From positions 48,898-68,897 of the forward strand of contig DAOORA010000019.1 in the NCBI GenBank assembly GCA_035389045.1: a DNA stretch of 20,000 nt, written 5' to 3'. The stretch comes from Bacteroidales bacterium (GTDB lineage: Bacteria > Bacteroidota > Bacteroidia > Bacteroidales > CAIWKO01). The notes under the pieces are model-generated. The model had not been told where the DNA came from, searched no databases, and worked only from the letters and a program-made list of their open reading frames with translations. Below, piece by piece: positions 1 through 14,208 of the stretch. The translations under genes were made by a program, and so were the position numbers. The first letter of the stretch is position 1; each line of letters starts with the position of its first letter.

Positions 1-850
1 TGACCATAAAATTACCGGTATTAACGAAGTTCATATGGTCGAGGAAGGCGACATTACCTTTGTCGATTTTTATAAGTATTATGATAAGGCATTAAACTCA
101 AAAGCCTCTACCGTCATAATAAATAAAAAGGTAACACCACCGGATGGCAAAGCGCTAATAATTTCTGAGGATCCTTTCCGGGACTTCAACAAAATCGCCA
201 CCCGTTTCCGGAAGTTTGAACCCTGTGCGAATCCTATCAGCGATTCGGCGGAAATAGGGGAAGGCACAATTTTGCAGCCAGGCGTGTTTATCGGGAACCA
301 TGTTAAAATTGGTAAAAACTGCATTATTCATTCCAACGTCAGCATTTACGATTATTCCGTTATTGGCGACAATGTCATCATCCAGTCGAATGCGGTTATC
401 GGAGGAGATGCCTATTATTTCAAACGTCGCCCCGATCATTACGATAAAATGGAATCATGCGGAAGGACCATCATACATGACGACGTAGAGATAGGCGCTC
501 TGTGTGCTGTGGACAAGGGTGTATCCGGAGATACTATCGTTGGCCAGGGCACAAAGATCGACAACCATGTTCAGATCGGACATGATACACATATTGGTAA
601 AAATTGTCTCATTGGTGCACATTCAGCCATAGCAGGAGTTACTGTCATTGAAGATGATGTTTGTATATGGGCACAGGTTATGATAAATAAAGACATAACA
701 ATTGGTAAAGGAGCTGTGCTTCTTGCAACGTCCGCCGTAGACAAATCTATGGAAGGCGGTAAGGTTTATTTTGGATCCCCGGCCATTGAAGCACGAAAAA
801 AATGGCGTGAGATAATAGCTTTGAAAAAATTAGCTGAAAATTATAAGTGA
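1..850 (+). CDS. lpxD: UDP-3-O-acyl-glucosamine N-acyltransferase family protein (LpxD-like, hexapeptide repeats), 5'-truncated by the window edge
   Basis: The frame is open from position 2 (DHKITGINEVH) into the ATG at 35, so the true start lies upstream of the window. It has an LpxD-type N-terminal segment (GINEVHMVEEGDITFVD), many [LIV]G-x4 hexapeptide repeats, and the KIDNHVQIGHD motif typical of LpxD. It may be a second LpxD paralogue. Confidence 0.85.
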   Translation, partial: DHKITGINEVHMVEEGDITFVDFYKYYDKALNSKASTVIINKKVTPPDGKALIISEDPFRDFNKIATRFRKFEPCANPISDSAEIGEGTILQPGVFIGNHVKIGKNCIIHSNVSIYDYSVIGDNVIIQSNAVIGGDAYYFKRRPDHYDKMESCGRTIIHDDVEIGALCAVDKGVSGDTIVGQGTKIDNHVQIGHDTHIGKNCLIGAHSAIAGVTVIEDDVCIWAQVMINKDITIGKGAVLLATSAVDKSMEGGKVYFGSPAIEARKKWREIIALKKLAENYK

Positions 851-907
851 TTTTCAGCAAAAACTACCGTTTATTTTTCGTATTGTCGTTCAGAAACATT
901 GTAAAGC

Positions 908-1288
908 ATGGGGGATAAAACATTTGATAAATATTCCAATATCCGCATAAATTACAAATTGTGGATGTCTTCTCAAACCGGTGATGCTATCATTGACGAT
1001 GATAAATGGAAAATGCTCATTTCTATACAGGAACTTGGTTCACTGATGGCAGCTGCCAATAATGAAAAGATAAGTTACCGCAAAGCCTGGGGTGATATTC
1101 GTAAAATGGAAGCTATACTTGGGTTCCGGCTGGTCGAAAAACACCGCGGGGGCAAGTCTGGTGGTATTACCATACTTACAAATGAGGGCGTCAGGCTTAT
1201 TAACTCGTATGTGAGATTTCGCGCTGAATTTCAGCAAAATGTTGATGAAACCATAAAAAAATTTAAAAAAGAGCTGAAACAAGTTTAG
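908..1288 (+). CDS. ModE-family winged helix-turn-helix transcriptional regulator (DNA-binding domain only, no TOBE/Mop domain)
   Basis: The pattern GSLMAAA...ISYRKAW..I..ME..LG..LVEKHRGGKSGG.T.LT..G matches the ModE N-terminal wHTH. At 126 aa it ends in a helix, with no room for molybdate-binding domains. Confidence 0.85.
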   Translation: MGDKTFDKYSNIRINYKLWMSSQTGDAIIDDDKWKMLISIQELGSLMAAANNEKISYRKAWGDIRKMEAILGFRLVEKHRGGKSGGITILTNEGVRLINSYVRFRAEFQQNVDETIKKFKKELKQV

Positions 1289-1295
1289 TTTCCCA

Positions 1296-2033
1296 ATGAG
1301 GATTTTTGTGGCCATCGACGATACAGATAATTCCGAAAGCAAGGGTACGGGTTTCAGGGCCAGAGAACTGGCAGTCCTTATTCAAAAAAAAAATCTGGGA
1401 TTGCTTTATGGAGTAACACGCCACCAGCTTTTTGTACATGAGAAGATTCCATATACATCTCATAACAGTTCAGCATGTATAGTTTTGATTGCTGATGAAA
1501 AAAACCTTCGGAGCATTATTGATGTTTCAGCACAATATCTTATTGAAAATGCTGCCGATGGTTCTGATGCCGGATTATGTGTCTGTTCCGAAAAAAATAT
1601 CACGGCGGAACTGATCTCCTATGCAAAAAAAGCCAAAACAGAAGTCTTGACTATGGATACAGCCATAGAATTGGCTCAGAAACATCAGATTTTTCTGGAG
1701 GGTTTTACGGGAACCAGACAGGGCGTTATAGGATCATTAGCGGCGATCGGACTGCATGCGGAAGGCAACGACGGCCGTTTTCTGCAGGTAAGGGGTATGA
1801 GAGAACTTTTTGGTGTACACACGGTTAAATACATCCTTGAATACACCGGCGTGGAAAAAATCATGTCCACAGAAAACAAAATATTGTTTAATTTCGAAAA
1901 AATTTTTCTTACCGAATGGTGGCGGCCTGTGCTTAATAATAAACAGGCAGTACTATATGTTGAAACAAAAAATGCATGTAATTATGAATACAGGGTTATC
2001 TCAAAAGAGCATATCAAAAACATATCCGACTAA
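1296..2033 (+). CDS. Stand-alone TiaS N-terminal-domain-like (DDTD motif) protein, putative ATP-dependent enzyme of unknown substrate
   Basis: The N-terminus MRIFVAIDDTD...GT, the internal IPYTSHNSS and the GVIGSLAAIG segment parallel conserved motifs of archaeal TiaS. At 245 aa it lacks the C-terminal OB-fold and Zn-ribbon. Confidence 0.75.
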   Translation: MRIFVAIDDTDNSESKGTGFRARELAVLIQKKNLGLLYGVTRHQLFVHEKIPYTSHNSSACIVLIADEKNLRSIIDVSAQYLIENAADGSDAGLCVCSEKNITAELISYAKKAKTEVLTMDTAIELAQKHQIFLEGFTGTRQGVIGSLAAIGLHAEGNDGRFLQVRGMRELFGVHTVKYILEYTGVEKIMSTENKILFNFEKIFLTEWWRPVLNNKQAVLYVETKNACNYEYRVISKEHIKNISD

Positions 2034-2550
2034 GGCTTTATTAACCTTACTTGAGGTGTTGCTCCTGATAAGTATAGGAGCCATCGGGGTTCTGATTCAC
2101 GCTAAATTCCGTTTTCCACTGAGATTGCCCGGGCACTGGGGATTGGTTTACATGGCGTTGATTTTTTCCGGGCGTTTGTTTTCAAAAAAACCTTATGCAT
2201 CAAGCCTGTCAAGCCTGGGCGCTGTTGCTATGTTATTACTGCCCCTTGGATTTAAAGACCCTTTTATGCCTGTCCTGTATATCTTTCCGGGGTTTATTAC
2301 GGACGTTTTCTATAATATCTTTAAAAACGGAAAAAAACAGATAATTCTTATTGCCCTTATTTCCGGAGTGGCTTATATGTCTATACCTTTGTCGCGTTTA
2401 TTTTTAACTTTGTTTACAGGAGTCATATATGGATCTTTCAGTACCGGATATATTTATCCTTTCATTATGCATTTTTTGTTCGGTGCATGTGGCGGCCTGA
2501 CCGGTCTTGGGATATACTCCGTCATTAGGAAAATTCTTAAACGATTATAA
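1984..2550 (+). CDS. Integral membrane protein with about 6 TM helices, ECF transporter S-component-like
   Basis: There are six hydrophobic segments in about 188 aa, and an LPGHWG loop after TM1. The ORF track starts at 1810, but that extension overlaps the upstream gene by more than 200 nt. The in-frame ATG at 1984 (MNTGLSQ) is the more plausible start, though uncertain. Confidence 0.6.
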   Translation: MNTGLSQKSISKTYPTKALLTLLEVLLLISIGAIGVLIHAKFRFPLRLPGHWGLVYMALIFSGRLFSKKPYASSLSSLGAVAMLLLPLGFKDPFMPVLYIFPGFITDVFYNIFKNGKKQIILIALISGVAYMSIPLSRLFLTLFTGVIYGSFSTGYIYPFIMHFLFGACGGLTGLGIYSVIRKILKRL

Positions 2551-2553
2551 TTA

Positions 2554-3444
2554 ATGATAAACCAATCGTTTTTTTTCAAATTAGAGATACTCGTTTTCAT
2601 TGTTGTTTTTTTCTCTTCATGTACCAAAAAAGATACAGACCCGCCTGTTATTACATTTGATGCTTCTGGCGGGCTGGTTTTCAAAGACACGGTATTTCCG
2701 GCCGGAACAAACTTCAAGGTGAGCCTTATTGCCGAAATGGGAGGGTCAAACATTACCAATTTTGTCATCAAAAATTATCACGACGGACAGGTCACCGATT
2801 ATTTTGATACAGGCGTGAATAGCGAAACTATTAATATTACAAAGATACTGACCAAAAATGTTTTTGATACAGAAAAGTGGACTTTTATGGTCATCGATAA
2901 AAATGGTAAAAATGCGTCTGTTTCATTTAATGTATATCGGGATACAAGCGCTGGATATCAATTGGTGAAAGTTTTTCCGGGCGTGATTCTTGGTGCACAG
3001 AAAAACCCTGCAAAAGGAAGCTTTATGAGCCTGAAAAGTGGCAACACATGGTTTCAGCCTGATGCATTCAACATCCAGGATTCAATAGAATTGCTGTATT
3101 ATTTTGACTCAACCGGCGATGCCAATACTATTGCTTCTGCCGGTGCTAACATTGCCACGTTTATTTACCCTGGAAGTACAAGCCCTTTATACTGGTCAAT
3201 CCGGCATGAAACCCGCTTTTATAAGACTGCATATTCAAATGTTGATTTTAATAATGTACAAAACGACAGCCTGTTGCTTGTTGCTTATGATGAAATCAAT
3301 GGTAAGCGTAAGGCCAAAAATCTTGCCGCCGGCGATGTGTATTCATTTAAGACAGCTCATGCACGGTACGGTATGTTTTTAGTGGAACAGGTTCTTGGCG
3401 CCGACTCCGGAATGGTGCAATTCACCATAAAAATCCAGAAATGA
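2554..3444 (+). CDS. Lipoprotein of unknown function, probably surface-exposed partner of the TonB-dependent receptor
   Basis: The signal peptide ends in FFSS-C (Cys23), followed by TKKDTD (Lys then acidic residues, resembling the Bacteroidota lipoprotein export signal). The body looks beta-rich, and its stop overlaps the receptor start (ATGA). Confidence 0.75.
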   Translation: MINQSFFFKLEILVFIVVFFSSCTKKDTDPPVITFDASGGLVFKDTVFPAGTNFKVSLIAEMGGSNITNFVIKNYHDGQVTDYFDTGVNSETINITKILTKNVFDTEKWTFMVIDKNGKNASVSFNVYRDTSAGYQLVKVFPGVILGAQKNPAKGSFMSLKSGNTWFQPDAFNIQDSIELLYYFDSTGDANTIASAGANIATFIYPGSTSPLYWSIRHETRFYKTAYSNVDFNNVQNDSLLLVAYDEINGKRKAKNLAAGDVYSFKTAHARYGMFLVEQVLGADSGMVQFTIKIQK

Positions 3445-5738
3445 TGAAAAAAATTATTGTTTTTAGCATCATTGTGTTGTGGATTATTCAGGTATCTGCC
3501 CAGGGTAAAATAAGCGGTCTTGTAATGGATGAACAGACCGGAAATATACTCCCGGTTGCTACCGTAAAAATCCTTGAGTTAAATATGGTGACTACCTCAG
3601 ATAAAGAAGGCGCTTATGTATTTAAATATATCCAACCAGGGAAATATCATCTCGCCTTCACCTATGTGGGCTATAAAAACGATACCGTTCAGGTCACCAT
3701 GGGGAAAAAAAGTGACCGATATATTATTACAAAACTTACTAAGGCGGTTATCGATATCTCTGAGGTGACTGTCATTGCATCAAGAACCGAAAAAGGGTTC
3801 CGGGTTCCTGCAAGTATGGATGTGATCACCAAAAAACAGTTGCAGGAGTTGCCTGTTGTTTCTGTGGACGATGCATTAGTTTTAGTTTCCGGATTGAATG
3901 CTTCAAGAAATTATGGGATTTATAATAAAACAGGTGATGTAACCTTGCGCGGGCTTAACCGCAACATTTACAGCCTGATACTGCTCGATGGCGTGCCTTA
4001 CAGCCTTTTCGACGGCAGCGCCAACCTGTGGAATAAACTGTATACCGAAAAAATTGATGACATCCAAATCGTAAAAGGGGCAAATTCGGCCTTGTATGGT
4101 AGCAATGCCATGTCAGGTGTAATTTGCATAAATACATACAAACCCGAAAAATCATTTGAAGCCAGGGCTAAGGTTTTTTTCGGGACTTATAATACGCAGG
4201 GCGGGAATCTTGTTGTTGGTGGCAACAGATCCAAAAATGACAGAGGGTTTTACTGGAGTGTCAATGGTTTTTACAGGAAAAGCGGAGGCTATATTATGGC
4301 GCCTGATTCGCTCAGAACACCTTATGATGTGAAAACCTACGTGATGGAATACAACGCATTGGCAAAAACCGGTTATCAGTTTGGTAAAGGTCATAACATC
4401 GAAGTTGAATATGAGTACTCATCCGATAAACGCGGTACCGGTAGTAAATTTTTCGAAGAACAGGGAAGTTATAACCATTACAGAACTCACTTTACCAGAT
4501 TATCATACAATCGTGTGCATGACAACCACGAGATTCATGCCAATGTTTTTTTTAAAAAGGAAGGGTATATAAAACAAAATGAATCCATCAAGAAAAACAC
4601 CGGATTGTACACATTTTACAATACGGACACCGATACACATGACGAAGGGCTTTGGTTCAGTTATACCACCAGGACAATAAAAAATAATGTGCTTACTGTT
4701 GGAACAGATGTTAAAAGCGGTGCTGTTTATTCAAATGATATTTATCATACTTCTGTTGATACCATTGAAAATAATGGGAAAATGGATTTTTTCGGCGTTT
4801 TTATTCAGGACCAGTTATCCCTGCTGAAAGACAAATTTGTGATTTTGGCCGCACTGCGTGCCGATCTGGTACACTTCTACGGAGGGATTTTCCATATATA
4901 TTCACCAACGCTTGCTACATCTTTTTTGTATGATTACCAGGGAGATTTTAAAGCAAAATCGTGGTTTGCATTGAGTCCGAAAGCAGGGTTTAAATATATT
5001 TTTAACGAAAACTTTAATATCTATGCGTTGTATTCCTGGGGTTTCAGGCCGCCACAGATCAACGACCTTTCGCGAACCGGAGATGTAAACAAAGGTTTCA
5101 AACTTGCCAATCCCGGCCTGAAACCTGAACGTATTCAGAGTGTGGAACTGGGTGCAGGATTACGTCCCGCAAAATGGTTGCTGATTCAGCCCATAGTGTT
5201 TTATTCAAAAGGTATAGATTTTCAGTATTTTGTTGCAACTGGCGATTCGGTATATACTTCGGGGGTGAATATGAAACCTGTCATAAAAAGACAAAATGTC
5301 GGAAGAGTTAATATCGCAGGATTTGAACTTAAAACCAGTATCAGTTTTACAAAAAACATGAAACTAACAACTTGTTATTCCTATAATTATTCGGTTATCG
5401 GAAAATACCTGCCGGGCACGGTTGTTACAACCGATCTCACGGGCAGGGACCTGATCGAAGTTCCCAGAAACCTTTTCAGTGGCATTTATACCTGGAATAA
5501 CAGAATTATAACGGCAACTCTTACAGCTAAGTTCATTGATAAAGAATGGGTCGACGATGAAAATACTATCAGACTTGACTCGTATTGGACTTTCGATGCC
5601 AGGATACAGCGTATGTTTTATAACAAAATTAATTTTGCGCTGACCTGTCAGAATATTTTAAACAAACGCTTTGTGGACAGCAAGGGCTACCTTTCGCCAG
5701 GAAGATACTTTTTGTTTGAATTGTCTTTCAACTGGTAA
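3441..5738 (+). CDS. TonB-dependent outer-membrane receptor with N-terminal CarboxypepD_reg-like domain
   Basis: It has a signal peptide, an N-terminal ISGLVMDEQTG...FTYVGY extension, a TonB-box-like EVTVIASR and plug motifs (LRGL, LILLDGVP, IQIVKGANSALYGSNAMSGVI). It also has NPGLKPE and a C-terminal NILNKRF...PGRYF...SFNW aromatic-ended strand. Confidence 0.95.
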   Translation: MMKKIIVFSIIVLWIIQVSAQGKISGLVMDEQTGNILPVATVKILELNMVTTSDKEGAYVFKYIQPGKYHLAFTYVGYKNDTVQVTMGKKSDRYIITKLTKAVIDISEVTVIASRTEKGFRVPASMDVITKKQLQELPVVSVDDALVLVSGLNASRNYGIYNKTGDVTLRGLNRNIYSLILLDGVPYSLFDGSANLWNKLYTEKIDDIQIVKGANSALYGSNAMSGVICINTYKPEKSFEARAKVFFGTYNTQGGNLVVGGNRSKNDRGFYWSVNGFYRKSGGYIMAPDSLRTPYDVKTYVMEYNALAKTGYQFGKGHNIEVEYEYSSDKRGTGSKFFEEQGSYNHYRTHFTRLSYNRVHDNHEIHANVFFKKEGYIKQNESIKKNTGLYTFYNTDTDTHDEGLWFSYTTRTIKNNVLTVGTDVKSGAVYSNDIYHTSVDTIENNGKMDFFGVFIQDQLSLLKDKFVILAALRADLVHFYGGIFHIYSPTLATSFLYDYQGDFKAKSWFALSPKAGFKYIFNENFNIYALYSWGFRPPQINDLSRTGDVNKGFKLANPGLKPERIQSVELGAGLRPAKWLLIQPIVFYSKGIDFQYFVATGDSVYTSGVNMKPVIKRQNVGRVNIAGFELKTSISFTKNMKLTTCYSYNYSVIGKYLPGTVVTTDLTGRDLIEVPRNLFSGIYTWNNRIITATLTAKFIDKEWVDDENTIRLDSYWTFDARIQRMFYNKINFALTCQNILNKRFVDSKGYLSPGRYFLFELSFNW

Positions 5739-5833
5739 GGAGTACATTCCAATCAATCATTTTTCAAATTCTTATATTTATTTTTCCTTATATTAATTAA
5801 TGAGTTTTTATATGAAAATTGTCTATTTTTTAT

Positions 5834-5841
5834 TAATTTTG
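5834..5841 (+). promoter_or_regulatory. Putative Bacteroidota housekeeping-sigma -7 element (TAATTTTG) upstream of lpdA
   Basis: Exact match to TAnnTTTG, 25 nt before the lpdA ATG in an AT-rich intergenic region. Confidence 0.55.
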
Positions 5842-5866
5842 CACTACAAATAACAAGAAGTAGTAT

Positions 5867-7258
5867 ATGAATTTCGATATTATTATAATAGGTTCAGGAC
5901 CGGGTGGTTATGTGGCTGGCATAAGAGCGTCGCAATTAGGTTTTTCCGTTGCTATGGTTGAACAGGCCGAGGTAGGCGGTATATGTCTAAATTGGGGCTG
6001 CATTCCTACCAAAGCGCTTCTGAAATCTGCCCAGGTTTATAATTATGCAAAACATGCCGCTGAATATGGAATTACGCTTACAGGCGATGTTGCTTTTGAT
6101 TTTCAGACTATCGTCAGACGCAGCCGTGATGTTGCGGAAAATATGAGCAAGGGTGTTCAGTTTTTGTTCAGAAAAAATAAAATCGAAGTAATTAAAGGCC
6201 ATGGAAAGATTTTGCCGGGCGGAAAAGTGGAAGTTACCGGCGGTGAAGGCCAAATATCGGTTTATGAGGCAAGACATATTATTCTTGCTACAGGATCACG
6301 TGCACGGGAACTTCCCAATCTGAAAATCGACGGCAAAAAAATTATTGGATACCGCCAGGCAATGACCTTGGAAAAACAACCACAATCATTGGTGGTAATA
6401 GGTTCCGGGGCTATCGGTTCGGAGTTTGCACACTTTTATAATACACTTGGCACCAAAGTGACACTGGTAGAGATGTTGCCCAATGTAGTTCCTGTCGAAG
6501 ATGAGGATGTGTCAAAACAACTGGAACGTTCTTTCAAAAAAAGCGGAATGAAAGTTTATACTGCTTCTGTCGTTGAAAGTGTTGATACCAGTGGCGAAAT
6601 TTGTAAGGTTTCGATAAAAACCCCAAAAAATGTTGAGGTGGTCGAAGCGGAAGTTGTTCTTTCTGCTGTTGGCGTAAGCACCAACCTTGAAAATTTAGGA
6701 TTGGAAGAAACCGGCATACTGACCGAAAGAGGAAAAGTCCTGGTGGATGAGTACTACCGGACCAACCAGGAAGGGTATTATGCCATCGGCGATATTGTAA
6801 AGGGGCCTGCCCTGGCTCATGTGGCTTCGCGCGAAGGTATTGTCTGTGTTGAAAAAATTGCCGGGAAAGACGTGGCGCCTGTGGATTATAGTAATATTCC
6901 GGGCTGTACATATACACATCCGGAGGTTGCCTCAGTGGGATATACCGAAAAAGCAGCCATCGAAGCAGGGTTGACCATAAAAACCGGAAAGTTCCCTTTT
7001 ACTGCCAGTGGAAAAGCCAATTCTTCGGGGTTCAGGGACGGTTTTATCAAAGTGATTTTTGATGCTGATTCCGGCAAATGGCTCGGAGCTCATTTTATCG
7101 GCGAGAATGTTACCGAAATGATAGCCGAAGTAGTAGTGGCGCGTAATATAGGCGCTACGGCTCACGATATTCTCACGGCAGTGCATCCGCACCCCACCAT
7201 GTCCGAAGCCGTTATGGAAGCCGTGGCAGCGGCATACGGTGAGGTGATTCATATATAA
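5867..7258 (+). CDS. lpdA: Dihydrolipoyl dehydrogenase (E3)
   Basis: It has the FAD-binding GSGPGGY, the redox-active GGICLNWGCIPTK, the NAD-binding GSGAIG and the C-terminal HPHPTMSE. Confidence 0.97.
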   Translation: MNFDIIIIGSGPGGYVAGIRASQLGFSVAMVEQAEVGGICLNWGCIPTKALLKSAQVYNYAKHAAEYGITLTGDVAFDFQTIVRRSRDVAENMSKGVQFLFRKNKIEVIKGHGKILPGGKVEVTGGEGQISVYEARHIILATGSRARELPNLKIDGKKIIGYRQAMTLEKQPQSLVVIGSGAIGSEFAHFYNTLGTKVTLVEMLPNVVPVEDEDVSKQLERSFKKSGMKVYTASVVESVDTSGEICKVSIKTPKNVEVVEAEVVLSAVGVSTNLENLGLEETGILTERGKVLVDEYYRTNQEGYYAIGDIVKGPALAHVASREGIVCVEKIAGKDVAPVDYSNIPGCTYTHPEVASVGYTEKAAIEAGLTIKTGKFPFTASGKANSSGFRDGFIKVIFDADSGKWLGAHFIGENVTEMIAEVVVARNIGATAHDILTAVHPHPTMSEAVMEAVAAAYGEVIHI

Positions 7259-7270: not shown

Positions 7271-9163
7271 ATGTGCGGTATCTCAGGCATAATAGCTTTC
7301 AGCGAAACAGGAAGAAATTATCTGCAAAACATTCATGCTGCTGTTGCTGCTATGAAAACAAGGGGGCCTGATAATAATGGAGTTTATATCAACGGTAATG
7401 TAGCTTTCGGCCATAACAGACTTTCCGTTATTGATGTTTCCGATGCTGCATCACAACCCTTTACGGATGAATCAGGAAGATATACCATCGTTTTTAACGG
7501 AGAGTTTTTTAATTTCAAATCCCATCGTGATCAGCTCATTTCCCGGGGAATACAACTGAAGTCAACCAGCGATACGGAAGTGCTGTTGTATTTATATATG
7601 CTTGAAGGGACTGCCTGTCTTCAAAAAATAAACGGGTTCTTTGCCTTGGCTATTCATGATAAGCATGAAGATACTGTTTTTATTGCTCGCGACCGCATGG
7701 GCGTCAAACCTTTGTTAATATATAAAGATCGGGACAAACTGTGCTTTGCTTCCGAAATGAAAGCCCTGTTTGCAATGCAGATACCTAAGCAACTAGACAG
7801 GGTGTCATTGCATGCTTATATGCAAATGAATTACATACCCGCCAATTTCACAATGATTAGCCATGTCGTAAAACTGGAACCGGGAAATTATCTGATGGTG
7901 AGGAAAAATTCAGCGGAACAGAAACAATATTATGCGATGCCTTATTCTCCTGGCCAGACAGATGCAAAGGCCGATTATGATACCTCCTGTAAGCGTGTGA
8001 AACAGCTGTTACTTGAATCCGTTGAAAAAAGAATGATTTCGGATGTTCCTCTTGGCGCTTTTCTCAGCGGAGGTGTCGACTCTTCTGTAATAGTGGCTCT
8101 TGCATCGCAATTCACAAAACAGTTAAACACATTTTCTATCGGGTTCAGGGATGAACCTTTTTTTGATGAAACCCGTTATGCACAAATTGTTGCAAATAAA
8201 TTTAACACCAGCCATACTGTTTTTTCTCTTACCCAGGATGATCTTTTGGCTGTTTTGTTTGATGTGCTTGATTATGTTGACGATCCTTTCGCTGATTCTT
8301 CAGCTATTGCAGTTTATTTGCTGAGCAGGGAAACCCGGAAGTTTGTTACTGTGGCCTTATCGGGAGATGGAGCCGATGAACTTTTCGGAGGATATCTGAA
8401 ACATACAGGTGAATATAAGATCAGGATGGCAGGACCACCGGAAAAACTTCTGAAATACTGTTTGCCATTGATTAACAGGCTTCCGCAGTCGCGAAATTCT
8501 GCTTTTTCCAATAAAGTACGGCAGATTGCAAAATATGCCAACGGACTGAAACTCTCAGATCGGGAACGTTACTGGCGGTGGTGTTCTTTTATTTCCGAAG
8601 AAGATGCCGGGCACATCATTTTAAAAAAGATCGACATTGACGAATATCTGGAACGTAAGAATACTATTTTAAAAAATATTACCTGTAAGGGAAGTATGAA
8701 TGATGTTTTGTTTGCCGATATGAAACATGTGCTGGTAAATGATATGCTGACCAAAGTTGATCTGATGTCAATGGCCAGTTCACTCGAAGTCAGAACACCC
8801 TTCCTTGATGTTGAACTTGTAAATTATGTTTTTTCACTGCCTGATTCATTCAAAGTTCAGGGAAACCTCAGGAAACGTATTTTACAGGATGCTTTTAAAG
8901 ACGATTTGCCGGCTGAAATATTTCACAGGGCGAAACATGGTTTTGAAGTTCCCTTATTAAAATGGTTCAGGAATGAGTTGTTTTCCATGATAAATGACGA
9001 CCTGCTTCACGATGACTTTATTGCCGGACAGGGCATATTCAGTGTTGCTGAAACAAAAAAACTCAAAACTCGTTTACAGTCTAATAATCCAGGCGATGTT
9101 CATGCTCAGATATGGGGATTATTGGTTTTTCAATATTGGTGGAAAAAGTATTTTGCAAATTAA
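7271..9163 (+). CDS. asnB: Asparagine synthase (glutamine-hydrolysing) family amidotransferase
   Basis: It begins MCGI (Ntn cysteine) and contains RGPD, GHNRLSVID, FNGE, SDTEV, LSGGVDSS, LSGDGADELFGGY and EVRTPFLD. Confidence 0.93.
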   Translation: MCGISGIIAFSETGRNYLQNIHAAVAAMKTRGPDNNGVYINGNVAFGHNRLSVIDVSDAASQPFTDESGRYTIVFNGEFFNFKSHRDQLISRGIQLKSTSDTEVLLYLYMLEGTACLQKINGFFALAIHDKHEDTVFIARDRMGVKPLLIYKDRDKLCFASEMKALFAMQIPKQLDRVSLHAYMQMNYIPANFTMISHVVKLEPGNYLMVRKNSAEQKQYYAMPYSPGQTDAKADYDTSCKRVKQLLLESVEKRMISDVPLGAFLSGGVDSSVIVALASQFTKQLNTFSIGFRDEPFFDETRYAQIVANKFNTSHTVFSLTQDDLLAVLFDVLDYVDDPFADSSAIAVYLLSRETRKFVTVALSGDGADELFGGYLKHTGEYKIRMAGPPEKLLKYCLPLINRLPQSRNSAFSNKVRQIAKYANGLKLSDRERYWRWCSFISEEDAGHIILKKIDIDEYLERKNTILKNITCKGSMNDVLFADMKHVLVNDMLTKVDLMSMASSLEVRTPFLDVELVNYVFSLPDSFKVQGNLRKRILQDAFKDDLPAEIFHRAKHGFEVPLLKWFRNELFSMINDDLLHDDFIAGQGIFSVAETKKLKTRLQSNNPGDVHAQIWGLLVFQYWWKKYFAN

Positions 9164-9172: not shown

Positions 9173-10357
9173 ATGCCTAGAGTATTAAGGATCATCAACC
9201 GTTTTAACCTCGGCGGGCCGACATACAACGCTGCCTATCTTACACGATATATGTCGCCTGAATTTCAGACCTTGCTGGTTGGTGGCATGAAAGACGAAAC
9301 GGAAGAAAACTCTGAATTTATTGTCCGTAATCTTGGAATTGTTCCTGTGATTATTCCTGAAATGCGCCGCTCCATAAACCCGGTTCAGGATGCTGTTGCA
9401 TTAAAAAGATTAATTTCTATCATTGGGGATTTCAGGCCTGATATTGTACATACTCATGCTTCTAAGGCCGGAGCTTTGGGTCGCAGGGCGGCACACAGGA
9501 TGAACGTTCCGGTGATTATTCATACTTTTCACGGCCATGTTTTTGATGCTTACTTCAGTGGCATTAAATCCCATATCTACCAGCATATTGAGAGAGTGCT
9601 TGCTAAAAAATCAACAAAGATCATTGCTCTGAGCGAAATTCAAAAATTTGATCTTGTGCATAAATATAAGATTTGCCCCGAAGAAAAAGTAAGGGTGATA
9701 CCGCTCGGATTTGACTTAAGTCGTTTCAGGGATAGTATGGACGAAAAAAGAATAAAGTTTCGTAAAGATCATTTGCTTGATGATGATGAAATAGCTGTCG
9801 GAATTATCGGGCGTATAGTCCCGATAAAAAATCACACCCTTTTTCTGGAAGGAATTAAATATATCACAGAGCAATCAGGAAAAAAGATCAGGGCATTCAT
9901 TGTGGGCGACGGCGAAGATAAAAATAAGGTGCGGGAAAAATGTCATGCCCTCGGCCTGAGTTGTGTTGATTTTACTGCTGAGAAAAGAAAAGCTGCCGTA
10001 ACCTTTACTTCCTGGATAAAAGATGTTGATTGTGTCAATGCAGGATTGGACATCGTTTCTCTTACCTCATTAAATGAAGGTACTCCCGTGAGCCTTATCG
10101 AAGCCCAGGCATCTGGAAAACCAATAATAACTACAAATGTAGGGGGTATTGAGAATATTGTGATCCCGGGGCAGACGGCATTACTGTCGGATATTGGCAT
10201 TGCAGATTATCGGAATAAGTTAATGAAACTTGTTTTGGACGAAACCATGAGGAGAAATTTCGGTAATGCCGGATGGAATTTTGTTAATCAAAAATTTTCA
10301 TATTTGCGTTTGGTCAATGATATGAAAAAATTATATTATGAATTATTGGCTATGTAA
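9173..10357 (+). CDS. Glycosyltransferase family 4 (GT-B fold)
   Basis: It contains PDIVHTHASKAG, HTFHGH, GRIVPIKNH and the S..EG.P..L.EA motif (SLNEGTPVSLIEAQASGKP). Confidence 0.92.
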   Translation: MPRVLRIINRFNLGGPTYNAAYLTRYMSPEFQTLLVGGMKDETEENSEFIVRNLGIVPVIIPEMRRSINPVQDAVALKRLISIIGDFRPDIVHTHASKAGALGRRAAHRMNVPVIIHTFHGHVFDAYFSGIKSHIYQHIERVLAKKSTKIIALSEIQKFDLVHKYKICPEEKVRVIPLGFDLSRFRDSMDEKRIKFRKDHLLDDDEIAVGIIGRIVPIKNHTLFLEGIKYITEQSGKKIRAFIVGDGEDKNKVREKCHALGLSCVDFTAEKRKAAVTFTSWIKDVDCVNAGLDIVSLTSLNEGTPVSLIEAQASGKPIITTNVGGIENIVIPGQTALLSDIGIADYRNKLMKLVLDETMRRNFGNAGWNFVNQKFSYLRLVNDMKKLYYELLAM

Positions 10358-10375
10358 CTTACGGGTGGAAATTAT

Positions 10376-10383
10376 TAAATTTG
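10376..10383 (+). promoter_or_regulatory. Putative -7 promoter element (TAAATTTG) upstream of wza
   Basis: Matches TAnnTTTG in the 39-nt gap between the GT4 gene and wza. Confidence 0.45.
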
Positions 10384-10396
10384 TAAAAAATTTAAA

Positions 10397-11137
10397 ATGA
10401 AACGCTTAATATATTTATTGGTTCTGGTAATATTTGTTTCGGGGTGCAGGGTTTTTACTCCTTATCAGATGCTGCGGCAGGGAGATTATCCTGTTTCAGA
10501 ATTCCCCGACTCCTTAAAAACCCGGGAGTATATCATTGCCCCCAATGATGAGCTTCAGATAAATCTCTTCACCAAAAATGGGGAACAGATCATTGACCCG
10601 CTGCGTTCAACGAGTGCCAGCAGTGGCGCCGATATAAAATATACCGTTGAATTTGACGGGCAGATAAAACTGCCGATCCTTAACAGAAAACAAATAGCCG
10701 GGAATACTATCCGTGAAGCGGAAAAATTGCTGGAAGACTTATATACCCCTTATTTCAACGAACCTTTTGTGCAGATTAAAGTTACCAATAACCGGGTTAC
10801 CATCTTTCCCGGCGGGCAGGGCAGTCAGGCAACGGTACTCACGCTGGATAATTCTAATACTACTCTTTTTGAAGCCCTGGCCAAAGCTGGCGGAATTACA
10901 GATGGCAAAGCCCATAAAATCAAACTTATTAGAGGAGACCTGAAAAATCCTCAGGTTTATTTTATTGATCTCTCTACTATCGAAGGAATGACAAAGGCCA
11001 ATCTTATATTACAGGCCAACGATATTATTTATGTTCAGCCACGCAACAAAATACCTCAGAAGATATTGGAAAATGTTGCTCCGTATTTGTCTTTGTTTGC
11101 AACCTTTTTAACAATTTATGCACTTTTCGTAAAATAA
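10397..11137 (+). CDS. wza: Polysaccharide export lipoprotein (Wza/OPX family)
   Basis: It has the lipobox VSG-C, a Poly_export motif (YIIAPNDELQI...DGQIKLP) and an SLBB segment (TLFEALAKAGG, LQANDIIYV). It is adjacent to wzc. Confidence 0.88.
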   Translation: MKRLIYLLVLVIFVSGCRVFTPYQMLRQGDYPVSEFPDSLKTREYIIAPNDELQINLFTKNGEQIIDPLRSTSASSGADIKYTVEFDGQIKLPILNRKQIAGNTIREAEKLLEDLYTPYFNEPFVQIKVTNNRVTIFPGGQGSQATVLTLDNSNTTLFEALAKAGGITDGKAHKIKLIRGDLKNPQVYFIDLSTIEGMTKANLILQANDIIYVQPRNKIPQKILENVAPYLSLFATFLTIYALFVK

Positions 11138-11141
11138 AACA

Positions 11142-13640
11142 ATGGATAGAAAGAAAAAAATATCTCTGATAAATGATGAGATTGATTTAAAATTATTCTT
11201 TTATATTTTTAAAAAAAACTTTTATTATCCTTTGATTTTTGTGTTACTTGCCCTGATAGGTGCATTCCTGTATATACGATATACCCTCCCGGTTTACGAA
11301 TCAAAAAGCATTATTCAGATTGATAGAAATGAAGAAGCACGTAGTCTGTTTGCCAATCCTTTGATGCAAACGGATGAAGATAACTTCCTGACAAAAAAGA
11401 TGGAAATTATCAAATCCTACACTTTTATTCAACGGATTGCTAATAAACTACCGCTTGCTGTTTCTTATTTCAGCAAAGGAACAGTACTTGATTATGAACA
11501 TTATAGAAATTCTCCTTTTAATGTTAGTATCAAAGTGAAGAATTCTGCTATATATGGTGTTCCGATAAATGTAAGTTTTTCCGACAACTCAAAAATTGCT
11601 ATCTCCTACAAGCTGGATGGGTTACCTGAACAACAAAAGCTAATCAACATAAATGAGCAGGCTGTTTTGCCGGATTTCGACATTACTTTCGTTTCTGTCA
11701 ATTATAAACGTATCAAAGAAAAAGAGGATTTTCTCGCTGGAGATAAATATTTTTTTGTAGTCAACAACCCTCAGAGTATTGTTCCCGGAATAATATCAAA
11801 ACTCCAGGTAAATATTCTCAATCAGGCTGCAAATACCATTCTTATTCAGTACAATGATAATTGTGCAGAGAAGGCAACCGACATAGTCAACACCATTGCC
11901 GAAGAATTTCAGAGCTACGACATCGAAAAACAGGCACAGAGCGCTGATAAAATGTTGAAGTATATTGATGACAGGATGGGAATCATTTATGATACTCTTG
12001 TAAAATCACAGAGTGATATTATAGGCTTCATGAGGGCCAACAATATTGATTCATCCGACAATAAACCCTTGCCATCCCTGACTTCTAGACTCAATGATTA
12101 TCAAAACCAGATCGTGACTCTTGAACTGGAATCCAACAAGTTGCAGGAAATAGAAAATAATATCAAAGCCTCCGATAAATCTGATCTTACCCGGCTGATC
12201 GTGCTGACAGCTGGCAGTGAATTCAAAGGTTCCATATCCGGTATGCTCAACACCCTTCAGGATCTGATTATCAGCCGTGAAAAATTATTGTATAACCTTA
12301 CCGAAAACAGCGGACAAATAAAAGAACTGGATTATCAGATCGGCGTGCAGAAAAAACTTATTATTGAAAGTATTAAATATCTGAATGATAATATTACTGA
12401 TCGCAAGAAAGAAATAACTGAAAAAATTGATTTGTATGAAAATATGTTGCAGGTAAAAGACCAAAACTATAATTCAGTGGATTTGGCAAGCCTGCAGAGG
12501 ATTTATTCCATTAATGAACGATACTATACTCAGTTGGTTGATAAAAAAGCAGAGTATTCCCTGGCTAAAGCAGGTTATGTGTCGCAGAATACCATCTTAC
12601 AACGGTCGGCGGTTGCTACTGAACCAATTTCTCCCCAAAAAAACAATGTATACTTATTCTCAGTATTGGTTTCTTTGTTATTGGGTTTAATAATCATTAT
12701 TGCAAAGTATGTTGTGTTTGATAATATATTAAATCTTAATGATATTGTTAAACATACAGATATTCCGATTATCGGGCTGGTTCCCAAGTATGAATTAAAA
12801 ATCCCTGTTTCTCAACTCATTGTTGATGACCATCCCAGATCCATTGTTGCTGAAGCATTACGTTCCATTCGAACCAATCTGCAGTTTCTGAACAATGAAC
12901 CGGGCTCAAAAATTGTCGCTCTTTCATCTACGGTTTCCGGCGAGGGAAAAACATTTGTGGCTATTAATCTTGCCGGTGTTATTGCTTTTTCTAACAAGAA
13001 AGTGCTGGTGATAGACATGGATTTGCGAAAGCCTAAAATCCATATAGGCTTTGGTGTGGGTAACAACAAGGGAATGAGTACGATCCTCTCAAAAAAAACC
13101 GATATAAATAATTGTATCAACCATAGTTCTGTTGAAAACCTCGATTTTATCACTGCCGGACCGGTTCCTCCCAATCCTTCCGAATTGATATTCAGCCAGG
13201 AAACAGATACTATCCTGGCCTTTCTTAAGACGAAATATGATTTCATTATTATTGATACTCCGCCGGTCGGCATGGTCACCGACGGAATTAAAGCAATGTC
13301 CGTTGCGGATTATCCCCTTTATATTATCAAGGCAAATTATTCAAAAAGGTATTATATTCTCGATCTTGAACGCATGGTGGAAGACAGCAAACTGAAACAT
13401 ATATCAATAATTTTAAATGCTGCTATACCGTTGAGCATGGCATACCGGTACGGAAAAAAATATCATGGGATCAACAAAAGTTTCAGTTACGGCTATGGCT
13501 ATGGATATGGTTATGGTTACGGTTATGGATATAACATTGATGAAGAGGATGATGGATCCGGTGATAGAAAAAACGGTCAAAAAGTTAAGAGGTCTTTTAT
13601 TGGTAAAATTCTTGGTTTTTTTAGATTAAACAGTAAATAA
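11142..13640 (+). CDS. wzc: Polysaccharide co-polymerase / BY tyrosine autokinase (Wzc family)
   Basis: Two TM segments flank a large periplasmic domain. The kinase part has EALRSIRTNL, Walker A SGEGKT, A' DMDLRKP, Walker B IIIDTPP and a C-terminal Tyr cluster. Confidence 0.93.
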   Translation: MDRKKKISLINDEIDLKLFFYIFKKNFYYPLIFVLLALIGAFLYIRYTLPVYESKSIIQIDRNEEARSLFANPLMQTDEDNFLTKKMEIIKSYTFIQRIANKLPLAVSYFSKGTVLDYEHYRNSPFNVSIKVKNSAIYGVPINVSFSDNSKIAISYKLDGLPEQQKLININEQAVLPDFDITFVSVNYKRIKEKEDFLAGDKYFFVVNNPQSIVPGIISKLQVNILNQAANTILIQYNDNCAEKATDIVNTIAEEFQSYDIEKQAQSADKMLKYIDDRMGIIYDTLVKSQSDIIGFMRANNIDSSDNKPLPSLTSRLNDYQNQIVTLELESNKLQEIENNIKASDKSDLTRLIVLTAGSEFKGSISGMLNTLQDLIISREKLLYNLTENSGQIKELDYQIGVQKKLIIESIKYLNDNITDRKKEITEKIDLYENMLQVKDQNYNSVDLASLQRIYSINERYYTQLVDKKAEYSLAKAGYVSQNTILQRSAVATEPISPQKNNVYLFSVLVSLLLGLIIIIAKYVVFDNILNLNDIVKHTDIPIIGLVPKYELKIPVSQLIVDDHPRSIVAEALRSIRTNLQFLNNEPGSKIVALSSTVSGEGKTFVAINLAGVIAFSNKKVLVIDMDLRKPKIHIGFGVGNNKGMSTILSKKTDINNCINHSSVENLDFITAGPVPPNPSELIFSQETDTILAFLKTKYDFIIIDTPPVGMVTDGIKAMSVADYPLYIIKANYSKRYYILDLERMVEDSKLKHISIILNAAIPLSMAYRYGKKYHGINKSFSYGYGYGYGYGYGYGYNIDEEDDGSGDRKNGQKVKRSFIGKILGFFRLNSK
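13488..13532 (+). repeat. Degenerate 6-bp tandem repeat (TAYGGN)7+TAT encoding the (YG)7Y tyrosine cluster of Wzc
   Basis: The sequence reads tac ggc tat ggc tat gga tat ggt tat ggt tac ggt tat gga tat. Confidence 0.9.
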
Positions 13641-14191: not shown

Positions 14192-14200
14192 ATTATTTAG

Positions 14201-14208
14201 TACTTTTG
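14201..14208 (+). promoter_or_regulatory. Putative -7 promoter element (TACTTTTG) upstream of the WecA/MraY-like gene
   Basis: Matches TAnnTTTG in the 36-nt intergenic gap, 19 nt before the GTG start. Confidence 0.55.

Follow-up and report, generated by a model that had tools for sequence, protein, structure and literature searches.

A candidate TonB-dependent tungsten acquisition operon in Bacteroidales

What might be taken up by an operon that joins a ModE-like regulator, a relative of an archaeal tRNA-modifying enzyme, a small membrane protein, a surface lipoprotein and a TonB-dependent receptor? The operon (908-5738) lies in a window of 20,000 nucleotides, which is the whole stretch analysed, from a sludge Bacteroidales genome (Table 1). 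ORFs and sequence agree exactly with a first-pass annotation, which had described five co-oriented genes spaced by +7, -50, +3 and -4 nt between lpxD and lpdA. Contigs from the RNA libraries of two studies cover positions 527-1371 and 1236-1393 as well as segments of the genes for the lipoprotein and the receptor, with DNA carry-over possible and no single transcript among them.

Table 1. Genes of the operon and its flanks in the window
Feature	Position	Strand	Basis
lpxD	2-850	+	matches NF002060, 235 bits (cut-off 207)
ModE-N-like winged-helix regulator, 126 aa	908-1288	+	ORF listing and sequence
TiaS-like protein, stand-alone, 245 aa	1296-2033	+	ORF listing and sequence
S-component-like membrane protein (by predicted structure), small, polytopic, 188 aa	1984-2550	+	within ORF 1810-2550; conserved start is the ATG at 1984
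Surface lipoprotein, 296 aa	2554-3444	+	signal peptide ending ...FFSSC, lipobox Cys23
TonB-dependent outer-membrane receptor, 765 aa	3441-5738	+	N-terminal CarboxypepD_reg domain
lpdA	5867-7258	+	matches TIGR01350, 550.6 bits (cut-off 408.8)

Conservation of the gene order

The recurring arrangement of these genes is more than chance because it is kept in most of the loci compared. The core order of TiaS-like protein, small membrane protein, lipoprotein and TonB-dependent receptor is found in 19 of the 20 Bacteroidales genomes for which 12-kb loci were read, and in 26 of 30 shorter loci the lipoprotein gene lies downstream at the distance of one membrane-protein gene. Three of the remaining four stop at a contig end, and the fourth, which has room downstream (L027), contains an in-frame TAA in its TiaS-like match. 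Moreover, in 79 of the 86 loci that extend 620 nt or more downstream, the TiaS-like gene shares at least 49 nt of its 3' end with a +1-frame ORF of 185-222 aa. In the window, the membrane protein gene starts 50 nt before the TiaS-like gene ends, and translational coupling of the two proteins is the best reading of the sequences. Some relatives of the TiaS-like gene in Desulfobacterota (L009, L010) have neither a membrane partner nor tungsten or molybdenum (Mo/W) neighbours.

The locus comparisons support the first-pass view of the five genes as one conserved unit; the ModE-like gene adjoins the TiaS-like gene in only 11 of the 20 12-kb loci and was not found nearby in the other 9.

Domains and predicted folds

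The roles that had been proposed for the individual proteins hold up at the level of domains and folds. The regulator is ModE-N-like by its match to the ModE N-terminal domain TIGR00637 (E 3.7e-22, 78.2 bits, below the cut-off of 98.5); it exceeds the cut-off of PF00126 (30 bits against 26.6), while its match to the ModE model NF007957 is confined to positions 18-103 of 263. A domain search found no molybdate-binding (Mop/TOBE) domain in its 126 aa.

Sequence profiles match the TiaS-like protein to known families at scores below their thresholds: 26.3 bits for PF22641 TiaS_TCKD (E 8.3e-6, cut-off 27), 43 bits for NF040849 TiaS (cut-off 600) and 52.6 bits for TIGR03280, methanogenesis marker 11 (cut-off 255.8). 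An alignment profile of the family matches TiaS in the PDB over residues 1-153 (E 3.2e-10), and the AF2 model (pLDDT 92.6) is matched to 5xob by Foldseek (E 3.3e-11, rmsd 2.2 over 157 columns) and to 3amt_A (Z 21.5, rmsd 1.8 over 151 residues) and 3u02_A (Z 16.1) by VIA-align, all of which backs a TiaS kinase fold. The model consists of an N-terminal TCKD domain (an ATP-using kinase; about 157 residues) and, after it, a beta-rich domain (about 85 residues), with no OB fold or zinc ribbon. Invariant in 37 sequences are D8 D9 T10 D11, R42 H43 Q44, I51 P52 T54 S55 N57 S58, G89 D91 and G157 D159 G160 R161; T18 is nearly so and aligns with Thr18 of TiaS, which we take to be the autophosphorylation site.

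The membrane protein has no Pfam, NCBIfam or PDB match by sequence, and hence no S-component family membership by that route. Its family can be aligned over 20 loci (motifs LPGHHG, GFKDPF and IPLxR), and its Atlas model resembles clusters of the S-component family PF09819 (ABC_cobalt; TM 0.78) and, more weakly, the S-components MptD and QueT. With no ECF module beside the gene, the predicted structure is consistent with the solitary S-component suggested before. The known cargoes of S-components are organic micronutrients and Ni/Co, and oxyanions are not known to be among them.

A surface-capture pair is likewise supported by sequence and models. The lipoprotein belongs to no Pfam or NCBIfam family; its AF2 model (pLDDT 93.5) comprises an Ig/PKD-like domain (27-134) and a HmuY-like domain (136-296), and VIA-align relates the latter to DUF4466 (4ei0_B, Z 15.7), PinO (6r2h, Z 10.0), HmuY (3h8t, Z 9.4), Tfo (6eu8, Z 8.8) and BfrB (8b6a, Z 8.8). 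The receptor exceeds the cut-offs of PF00593 (barrel, 113 bits), PF07715 (Plug, 72.9 bits) and PF13715 (CarboxypepD_reg, 63.3 bits). A second operon of the same genome, on contig C1, encodes a paralogous lipoprotein (E 6e-40) and receptor (30 % identity, E 9e-120) in the order WtpA, lipoprotein, T9SS-tail protein, receptor, 357-aa lipoprotein, WtpB permease and WtpC ATPase.

Tungsten and molybdenum in the neighbourhood and across genomes

At least 26 of the 62 loci of at least 6 kb contain a Mo/W transport or cofactor gene. In 11 Bacteroidales loci (L003-L006, L042, L046, L051, L052, L058, L103, L135) the receptor is followed by MoeA, and likewise by MoaA and MoaC wherever these loci extend far enough. 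Five loci (L044, L049, L061, L084, L094) have a substrate-binding protein gene placed between their ModE-like and TiaS-like genes; the WtpA model TIGR03730 (cut-off 242.75) gives 310-336 bits for those of L044 and L061 and for another that L048 has downstream of its receptor. In metagenome loci of other phyla, the TiaS-like/membrane pair adjoins other TonB-dependent receptors (L008, L093, L101, L109, L144) or (L099, L105, L114, L117, L129) is flanked on one side by a regulator with HTH and PBP_like (PF12727) domains and on the other by a TupA-like protein, TupB and TupC, two MoeA and a TOBE protein. Where the pair shares an operon with TupABC or WtpABC, there seems little need for another importer of the ion, and the pair may act otherwise there.

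The TiaS-like gene is carried by 51 of 301 Bacteroidales genomes, which are mutually related, so that the following counts overstate independence, and which include drafts 63-99 % complete, so that absences are no proof. The tungstoenzyme family AOR (aldehyde:ferredoxin oxidoreductase) occurs in 50 of 51 carriers against 76 of 250 non-carriers, MoaC in 48 against 92 and WtpA in 30 against 70. The 126 AOR-positive genomes have WtpA only (68), both genes (30), the TiaS-like gene only (20) or neither (8), whereas among the 175 AOR-negative genomes WtpA occurs in 2 and the TiaS-like gene in 1. None of the 21 carriers without WtpA has TupA (E <= 1e-10), and 17 of them have no match to PF13531 at 1e-5, that is, no ModA/WtpA/TupA-type binding protein. 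These 17 keep MoeA/MoaC-type genes, which need free metal, and the module may be their sole Mo/W route besides any MolBCA-type system or sulfate or phosphate carrier. The window's own genome, with two AOR-family genes, an FDH-like gene that contains an in-frame TGA, and MoeA, MoaA, MoaC and MogA/MoaB-like genes, needs Mo/W metal.

Proposed function, alternatives and related systems

Neighbours and phyletic pattern agree that the theme of the operon is tungsten/molybdenum, not vitamins or haem, and strongly bear out the Mo/W link that had been drawn from ModE. The module very probably serves the acquisition or handling of these metals, and the metal concerned is quite likely to be mainly tungsten. 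We consider it probable, on balance, that the operon is a TonB-dependent acquisition module for tungsten and possibly also molybdenum. The HmuY-like lipoprotein would capture scarce species (tungstate, molybdate or a complexed form) at the surface, the receptor would take the cargo from it into the periplasm, and its passage through the inner membrane would be the task of the S-component-like protein, with no ABC binding-protein system involved; this carrier role is one that we favour by a little. The translationally coupled cytoplasmic partner may spend ATP in driving or gating this step, or may instead receive the oxyanion in the cytoplasm and deliver it towards MoeA, which would insert it into molybdopterin; ATP use in transport or trapping is a tentative suggestion, for an enzyme whose chemistry we infer. 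Regulation would fall to the ModE-N-like protein. If true, this would be an undescribed Mo/W uptake route joining receptor, surface lipoprotein, membrane protein and TiaS-like enzyme; as the first-pass annotation had supposed, no system of this five-gene composition was found in the literature searched.

Pterin salvage was the leading idea of that annotation. Receptor and lipoprotein would capture molybdopterin, cPMP or the Mo or W cofactor (Moco/Wco), the S-component would import it, and the TCKD enzyme would activate a pterin carbonyl or re-adenylate the cargo. The TCKD of TiaS uses ATP to activate a heterocycle carbonyl, vitamins and cofactor precursors are the usual cargo of S-components, TonB-dependent receptors are suited to cargo that exceeds the size limit of porins, and the surrounding genes are Mo/W cofactor genes; the TCKD model also has a weak likeness to the pterin pyrophosphokinases HPPK (VIA-align Z 6.7-7.1), at chance level by the tool's own note. 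However, genomes with Mo/W enzymes and no moaA/moaC, which salvage should favour, are the opposite of what was found: 48 of the 51 carriers retain MoaC, often with MoeA and MoaA in the same operon, and therefore salvage does not replace synthesis. The 17 carriers that keep metal-requiring MoeA/MoaC-type genes while lacking any ModA/WtpA/TupA-type protein, the paralogous lipoprotein-receptor pair within a wtpABC tungstate operon and the TiaS-like/membrane pair in TupABC operons under tungstate-type regulators argue in the same direction. We thus regard pterin salvage as unlikely; from its context, the cargo is likelier to be the metal oxyanion itself or a complex thereof, with tungsten favoured over molybdenum, and nothing points to a corrinoid or modified nucleoside. 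The uptake-and-activation route proposed earlier is supported in part: the conserved unit, the folds, the surface-capture pair and the Mo/W link stand.

It is still less probable that the pair signals rather than carries, the S-fold protein sensing periplasmic W/Mo and the kinase-like protein relaying this, possibly to the ModE-N-like regulator. The regulator's lack of a Mop/TOBE domain and the nearly invariant T18 would suit such a relay, and one source (PMC11109136) reports the S-component fold in membrane sensor domains of histidine kinases, as well as solitary S-components. But operons in which the regulator itself bears a PBP_like sensing domain also contain the pair, no ModE-like gene was found near it in 9 of 20 Bacteroidales loci, and 17 carriers would be left without any recognisable Mo/W importer. 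An ordinary HmuY/HmuR-type locus for haem or another tetrapyrrole that simply lies near Mo/W genes is very improbable. The lipoprotein fold is compatible with it, TonB-hemin (TIGR01785, 170.6 bits) scores best for the receptor among NCBIfam models, and of solved structures PhuR comes nearest to the receptor (E 2.1e-17), but the cut-off for TonB-hemin is 316.85 bits, His and Met are neither invariant nor nearly so in 26 lipoprotein sequences, the loci read show no hmuS/T/U/V-like genes, and both neighbours and phyletic pattern are Mo/W throughout.

The acquisition module that we favour combines features of several known systems. In HmuY-HmuR, the haem uptake pair of Porphyromonas and Bacteroides, the lipoprotein gene also directly precedes and overlaps the receptor gene, the C-terminal domain of the window lipoprotein has the HmuY fold (Z 8.8-10.0), and haem receptors are the nearest, though distant, relatives of the window receptor, which scores below their cut-off; the window lipoprotein adds the Ig/PKD-like domain and lacks conserved His/Met ligands, and instead of HmuSTUV or other haem genes the operon type has WtpA, MoeA, MoaA and MoaC as neighbours. 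With TiaS, the archaeal tRNA(Ile2) agmatidine synthetase, the TiaS-like protein has in common the TCKD fold of its N-terminal ~157 residues and the motifs IDDTD, IPY and GxIGxLAAxG, but it is bacterial, half as long and without the OB fold and zinc ribbon, presumably the tRNA-binding domains; the invariant motifs RHQL, TSHNS and GNDGR are its family's own, as is, save in some Desulfobacterota relatives, the pairing with a membrane protein.

As in solitary S-components (BtuM for cobalamin, some BioY), the membrane protein is predicted to be a small S-fold protein without an adjacent ECF module and, as in BtuB-type routes, it would act downstream of a TonB-dependent receptor; it differs in its Mo/W rather than vitamin context, in belonging to no S-component family by sequence and in being coupled to a cytoplasmic TCKD-like protein through the conserved 50-nt overlap. 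A functional analogy at most is offered by PnuC with the NadR kinase, that of a small unpowered carrier with an ATP-using cytoplasmic partner: the proteins are unrelated to the window pair, whose two members may not be in contact, and an oxyanion is no obvious substrate for trapping by phosphorylation. There is a kinship of context with the tungstate importers WtpABC and TupABC (and ModABC for molybdate), which share with the operon their gene neighbourhoods and phyletic partners (AOR-family enzymes and Moco synthesis), WtpA and the TiaS-like gene being partly complementary among AOR-positive genomes. Unlike these importers, the window operon encodes neither a binding protein nor a permease or ABC ATPase. 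What it has in addition is a TonB-dependent step at the outer membrane, and for the inner membrane the candidate is the S-component-like protein with its TCKD-type partner.

Layout, expression and conservation of the operon

The five genes of the operon follow one another with intergenic spacings of +7, -50, +3 and -4 nt, exactly those put forward in the first-pass annotation. The start of the membrane-protein gene was set within the upstream gene because a site 49 nt before the end of the latter recurs as the minimal start across loci.

Coordinates of the operon, its flanking genes and a small lipoprotein of related loci
Feature	Position	Strand	Basis
lpxD	2-850	+	ORF listing and sequence
ModE-N-like regulator, 126 aa	908-1288	+	ORF listing and sequence
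TiaS-like protein, 245 aa	1296-2033	+	ORF listing and sequence
Membrane-protein gene	1984-2550	+	ORF open from 1810; start 1984 by comparison of loci
Lipoprotein, signal peptide up to Cys23	2554-3444	+	ORF listing and sequence
TonB-dependent receptor	3441-5738	+	ORF listing and sequence
lpdA	5867-7258	+	ORF listing and sequence
Asparagine synthase-like gene	7271-9163	+	ORF listing and sequence
Small LSAC lipoprotein of other loci	L099:1003-1443; L105:2878-3312; L114:438-893; L117:6914-7378; L129:7393-7839		

A promoter and terminator scan of 700-6000 gave no signal above shuffled background that would divide the five genes: 19 promoter-like sites were found vs 15.9 expected, and 9 terminator-like sites vs 4.3 expected, none of the latter in the intergenic gaps of the operon. 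Rfam returned no family at gathering score over the window, hence no Moco riboswitch, and a comparison of 9-mers upstream of the operon, of a second, wtpA-led operon of the same genome, of moeA and of moaC gave no convincing shared operator motif. In RNA libraries of two studies, contig coverage runs from the end of lpxD through the regulator gene into the start of the TiaS-like gene (527-1371), with further contigs at 1236-1393 and over parts of the lipoprotein gene (2886-3397 and 3124-3410) and of the receptor gene (4348-4650 and 4295-4554). The contigs skip 1536-2763 (the TiaS-like gene in its 3' part, and the membrane gene), which is uninformative either way. The DNA and RNA runs containing this stretch stem from activated sludge and anaerobic digesters. 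The RNA contigs, which show no single transcript, strand or level and may include DNA carry-over, are a weak sign that the operon genes are expressed in sludge communities.

In lpdA, contigs of two DNA runs contain a joint skipping 385 nt (6798-7184), whose shorter arm is only 20 letters long, and loose ends occur at 6778 and 7203; it is probably a conserved lpdA segment of a relative or of another organism, not a deletion. The remainder of the window (9173-19950) is ordinary, with genes for a glycosyltransferase, Wza-like and Wzc-like polysaccharide export proteins, RmlC, a WecA-like transferase, a lytic transglycosylase, UvrA and a LOG-family protein.

A scan of genome contigs yielded ten loci. 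Five Bacteroidales MAGs carry the genes for the ModE-like protein, the TiaS-like protein, the lipoprotein and the receptor in identical order, while in a sixth the contig breaks off at the start of the receptor, after the TiaS-like gene and the lipoprotein, and no ModE-like match was seen. The TiaS-like gene is found once each in 51 of 301 Bacteroidales species genomes. When 1.5-kb flanks were inspected, the lipoprotein lay at membrane-gene distance after it in 26 of 30 loci; a contig end intervenes in three of the four remaining cases, and the fourth (L027), where downstream room is present, has an in-frame TAA in the TiaS-like match. At 12 kb, the order TiaS-like gene, gap of about 600 nt, lipoprotein and receptor was seen in 19 of 20 loci, and a ModE-like gene is nearby in 11 of the 20. 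This gap encodes a conserved membrane protein of 186-199 aa that can be aligned, yet is too diverged for tblastn. Among the 86 loci with at least 620 nt downstream of the TiaS-like gene, 79 contain a +1-frame ORF of 185-222 aa overlapping its 3' end by at least 49 nt, and the TiaS-like/membrane-protein pair therefore constitutes the invariant core. The five-gene arrangement originally noticed in a single sequence is thus real and well conserved.

A 93-aa PpnP-family (PF06865) gene is located just upstream of the ModE-like gene in many loci, and co-oriented with it in L003-L006, L042, L046, L049-L051, L057, L076, L084, L094 and L135; it is missing from the window, where lpxD occupies this place. 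A protein of about 280 aa with a T9SS C-terminal sorting domain is encoded downstream of the receptor in at least 14 loci; it may act for the system in capture, either secreted or anchored at the surface. In the window's genus-mate (L043:8093-10433), the T9SS-tail protein and a 400-aa CehA/McbA-like metallohydrolase lie between receptor and lpdA; the window has neither.

Folds and family membership of the five proteins

The 245-aa protein is homologous to the N-terminal kinase domain (TCKD) of archaeal TiaS. A PDB profile search matched this domain over residues 1-153 (E 3.2e-10) and Foldseek the TiaS structure (E 3.3e-11, rmsd 2.2 over 157 columns), while VIA-align superimposed the AF2 model (pLDDT 92.6) on TiaS with Z 21.5 and an rmsd of 1.8 over 151 residues. 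The second-best match was 3u02, a 240-residue Pyrococcus chain (Z 16.1), and all others remained at or below Z 8.2; HPPK-like folds, at Z about 7, were discounted, this being a level that the tool calls common. PF22641 scored 26.3 bits, slightly below its cut-off of 27. The protein, whose family comprises 425 clusters at 50 % identity (E <= 1e-30), has the motifs IDDTD, IPY and GxIGxLAAxG and a nearly invariant T18 in common with TiaS, and possesses the invariant motifs RHQL, TSHNS and GNDGR of its own. TiaS splits ATP to AMP and PPi, phosphorylates the C34 carbonyl and autophosphorylates Thr18. In the model of the 245-aa protein the TCKD is followed by a beta-rich domain of about 85 residues only, and NF040849 aligns over profile positions 1-157 of 422 with 43.2 bits vs a cut-off of 600. 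Since the OB fold and the zinc ribbon, with which TiaS holds its tRNA, are absent from the model and the score is so far below the equivalog cut-off, identity with TiaS was rejected.

Prediction of a complex between the TiaS-like and the membrane protein gave no answer (score 0.00 vs a mark of 0.32). A search for longer homologues returned a single 1053-aa protein combining HTH, Plug and barrel domains, which is probably the product of fused gene calls, and an 826-aa representative carries DAO and BFD domains; neither explains the chemistry. The sole Bacteroidales locus devoid of synteny is an orphan, diverged copy (L059:7923-8660) with IDNTD for IDDTD and DDPVSSYNS for IPYTSHNS, which has no membrane, lipoprotein or receptor partner. 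Its genome is also the only one with a TiaS-like gene to lack an AOR-family gene, and has no MoaC match either. A Desulfobulbaceae relative, likewise found without a membrane partner, is accompanied by a 286-aa gene of the amino-acid-kinase family (L009:4358-5218), a fold shared by the subunits of the ATP-dependent Mo storage protein; a 169-aa ORF upstream of this relative was rejected as a membrane-protein homologue (hhalign probability 0.04).

The regulator matches the ModE N-terminal domain (TIGR00637, E 3.7e-22; 78.2 bits, below the cut-off of 98.5) and the LysR-type HTH (PF00126, 30 bits, above the cut-off of 26.6). The ModE profile NF007957 is covered from position 18 to 103 of 263 only (46.3 bits vs 369). 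Because it is only 126 aa long, the protein has no room for the molybdate-binding half of ModE, and the C-terminal di-Mop/TOBE domains are lacking.

The membrane protein belongs to no Pfam or NCBIfam family and has no PDB sequence match at E <= 10. In comparisons of predicted with predicted structures, its Atlas model reaches TM 0.78 to clusters in which 20-31 % of the members carry PF09819, the mark of an S-component family, and 0.60-0.62 to the MptD and QueT S-component clusters. Out of 20 aligned membrane proteins, only the Desulfobacterota member matched PF09819 (E 5.9e-4; 20.4 bits, below the cut-off of 25.2), and by sequence the window protein falls into no described S-component family. 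EcfA/A'/T module genes were not found in the operon; at one other locus (L008) a double ABC ATPase is encoded nearby.

The lipoprotein model (pLDDT 93.5) consists of an Ig/PKD-like domain followed by a domain, at residues about 136-296, with the HmuY beta-sandwich fold. For this region VIA-align lists PinO (Z 10.0, 120 residues aligned), HmuY (Z 9.4, 124), BF2707 (Z 9.3, 122), Tfo (Z 8.8, 124) and BfrB (Z 8.8, 126), and the whole protein is similar in shape to the DUF4466 structure 4ei0 (Z 15.7). The HmuY family binds haem through a pair of axial His ligands, with Met used by some homologues; among 26 aligned lipoproteins neither residue appears in an invariant or nearly invariant column. The receptor has a Plug and 22-strand barrel (PF07715, 72.9 bits, cut-off 23.9; PF00593, 113.3 bits, cut-off 27) preceded by an N-terminal CarboxypepD_reg domain of Bacteroidota type. 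Its similarity to characterised receptors is distant and greatest for haem receptors, though with 170.6 bits vs a cut-off of 316.85 it lies outside the haem/haemoglobin receptor subfamily TIGR01785.

Tungsten and molybdenum genes in the neighbourhood and across genomes

The neighbours were surveyed by Pfam and NCBIfam scans and by a tblastn tally over 62 loci of at least 6 kb. At least 26 of these contain a Mo/W transport or cofactor gene, and many of the others are short on one side. In Bacteroidales, MoeA is encoded after the receptor in 11 loci, with an HD-domain or T9SS-tail protein in between, and MoaA and MoaC then follow where the locus extends far enough. The HD-domain protein occupies this position in L003-L006, L046 (3225-4040), L051 and L135; one is also encoded near the Moco cluster of the window's genome (L149:9044-9610). 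Five loci have a binding-protein gene between the ModE-like and TiaS-like genes, and the proteins tested score 288-336 bits with the WtpA model TIGR03730 (cut-off 242.75).

Metagenome loci from outside the Bacteroidota have the order HTH+PBP_like regulator, lipoprotein of about 150 aa, TiaS-like protein, membrane protein, TupA-like protein (238 bits, below the cut-off of 400), permease, ATPase, MoeA and MoeA fused to PBP_like, to which L117 adds a TOBE protein and L144 a MoeB-like one. In L008, L093, L101, L109 and L144 the pair has other TonB-dependent receptors beside it. PBP_like tungstate regulators exist in sulfate reducers. Whereas diderm loci have the receptor and the large lipoprotein downstream, these loci instead place the small, conserved lipoprotein (144-154 aa, lipobox LSAC, no family) immediately before the TiaS-like gene; it may serve the pair as a binding partner outside the cytoplasm.

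The binding protein, permease and ABC ATPase of a WtpABC, TupABC or ModABC set are all absent from 908-5738 and are encoded on another contig, C1, of the same genome. There, a second, seven-gene tungstate operon (about 144.6-153.5 kb, - strand; L150:1551-7484 and L154:4586-7511) comprises WtpA, a lipoprotein paralogue (29 % identity, E 6e-40), a 468-aa T9SS-tail protein, a receptor paralogue (30 % identity, E 9e-120), a 357-aa lipoprotein, the permease WtpB and the ATPase WtpC; just beyond wtpA, on its upstream side, the contig breaks off. No family was assigned to the 357-aa lipoprotein, and its counterpart in the corresponding position of L048 shares 48 % identity with it. The contig of the window itself carries, about 42-46 kb further upstream, genes for MoeA, MoaA, Nramp, MoaC and a MOSC-MogA/MoaB-like protein. 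Upstream of moeA, this moeA-moaA-Nramp-moaC cluster, which has an Nramp metal carrier gene within it, is preceded by about 150 nt in which CAATAG/CCAATAG-like and TGACTGATGAC-like units recur (contig C19, L149:2880-3050). The genome has two AOR-family and two PF00384 (molybdopterin oxidoreductase) genes; one PF00384 match (G000:C4:39884-41164) lies in a 909-aa frame with one in-frame TGA, as would be expected of a selenocysteine formate dehydrogenase.

Phyletic counts were made in one set of 301 Bacteroidales genomes, 51 with (carriers) and 250 without the TiaS-like gene, which are related to each other and, as drafts, may miss genes. An AOR-family gene is present in 50/51 carriers vs 76/250 non-carriers, MoaC in 48/51 vs 92/250 and WtpA in 30/51 vs 70/250. 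Of the 126 AOR-positive genomes, 68 have WtpA without the TiaS-like gene, 20 the TiaS-like gene without WtpA, 30 both and 8 neither, and in the 175 AOR-negative genomes WtpA occurs in 2 and the TiaS-like gene in 1. TupA is missing (E <= 1e-10) from all 21 carriers that lack WtpA, and 17 of them give no match to SBP_bac_11 (ModA/WtpA family) at E <= 1e-5, 12 of these being at least 93 % complete. These 17, a third of the carriers and defined by their lack of ModA-, WtpA- and TupA-type binding proteins, retain tungstoenzyme-family genes, and 16 have kept MoaC, which makes the module a concrete candidate for their metal acquisition. The pattern is as expected if it feeds metal to tungstoenzyme-family proteins and can replace WtpABC. 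Together with the WtpA, TupA, MoeA, MoaA and MoaC neighbours, the AOR co-occurrence upholds the Mo/W link suggested at first reading.

A candidate metal importer and its relation to known systems

From anatomy, folds, contexts and co-occurrence we infer a route in which the lipoprotein would capture a W/Mo species at the cell surface, the receptor would import it using TonB energy, and the S-component-like membrane protein would move it through the inner membrane. The TCKD protein would spend ATP, either driving or gating the carrier or accepting the oxyanion and passing it towards MoeA, and the gene overlap would ensure its synthesis in fixed proportion to the membrane protein; the short ModE-like protein would control the operon. 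The AOR association and the neighbouring WtpA/TupA genes favour tungsten as cargo, with molybdate, or the two metals together, as possible alternatives. Tentatively, the TiaS-like and S-component-like proteins might then represent a new class of inner-membrane tungstate/molybdate importer, which relies on a TCKD-type ATP-splitting enzyme and not on an ABC ATPase to power or complete transport, for instance through a short-lived activated oxyanion passed to MoeA, and which is fed in diderms by a dedicated TonB-dependent receptor and an HmuY-fold metal-capturing lipoprotein. The pair also adjoins complete TupABC or WtpABC sets; there it may carry a different chemical species, for instance a chelate or, where the habitat is sulfidic, thio-anions, or it may serve in handing on metal rather than in transport.

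Salvage of a pterin or cofactor would share the uptake route and the Moco gene neighbours, but it predicts enrichment in genomes without moaA/moaC, and the MoaC distribution among carriers runs directly against this; we regard it as rather unlikely. Capture, two membrane steps, a cytoplasmic ATP-dependent step and the Mo/W link survive from the first-pass annotation, while its preferred cargos (pterin, nucleoside or corrinoid) do not. The pair could also be a sensing device, given that PMC11109136 places the S-component fold in sensor kinases as well; such a role appears improbable. Plain haem uptake would account for the HmuY fold and for the nearest receptor relatives, yet the conserved lipoprotein columns contain no His or Met and the receptor falls short of the haem subfamily, which leaves it very little credit.

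If metal import by the pair is confirmed, the operon would be the first TonB-dependent tungsten uptake system, adding W/Mo to the TonB-dependent cargos and re-using an HmuY-fold protein for a non-haem purpose. A large, widespread bacterial family of 'hypothetical' TiaS-like proteins (425 clusters) would gain a function, and a clue to what methanogenesis marker protein 11 does might perhaps emerge. W/Mo enzymes, i.e., AOR-family oxidoreductases and formate dehydrogenases, drive much of the anaerobic carbon turnover in digesters, sediments and guts. Within a literature search covering mostly open journals, no paper linked TonB-dependent receptors, S-components or TiaS-like proteins to tungstate/molybdate uptake, which makes the novelty provisional; nothing relevant on methanogenesis marker protein 11, on TiaS Thr18/agmatidine or on tungstate-responsive regulation came up in the same literature.

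To our knowledge, the only high-affinity W/Mo importers are the ABC systems ModABC, WtpABC and TupABC, and we know of the TCKD-type kinase domain only from archaeal tRNA modification. Membership in TiaS, ModE, the described S-component families, the haem-receptor subfamily and the haem-binding HmuY group fails in each case on a tested defining feature. The outer-membrane half can be likened to HmuY-HmuR or other lipoprotein-receptor pairs of Bacteroidota, and WtpABC and TupABC are variations on the same theme as the operon. In its predicted structure the membrane protein resembles solitary S-components such as BtuM, and TiaS has only its kinase domain in common with the 245-aa enzyme. The operon is best classed as a TonB-dependent micronutrient uptake system built around a pair of components without a characterised counterpart.
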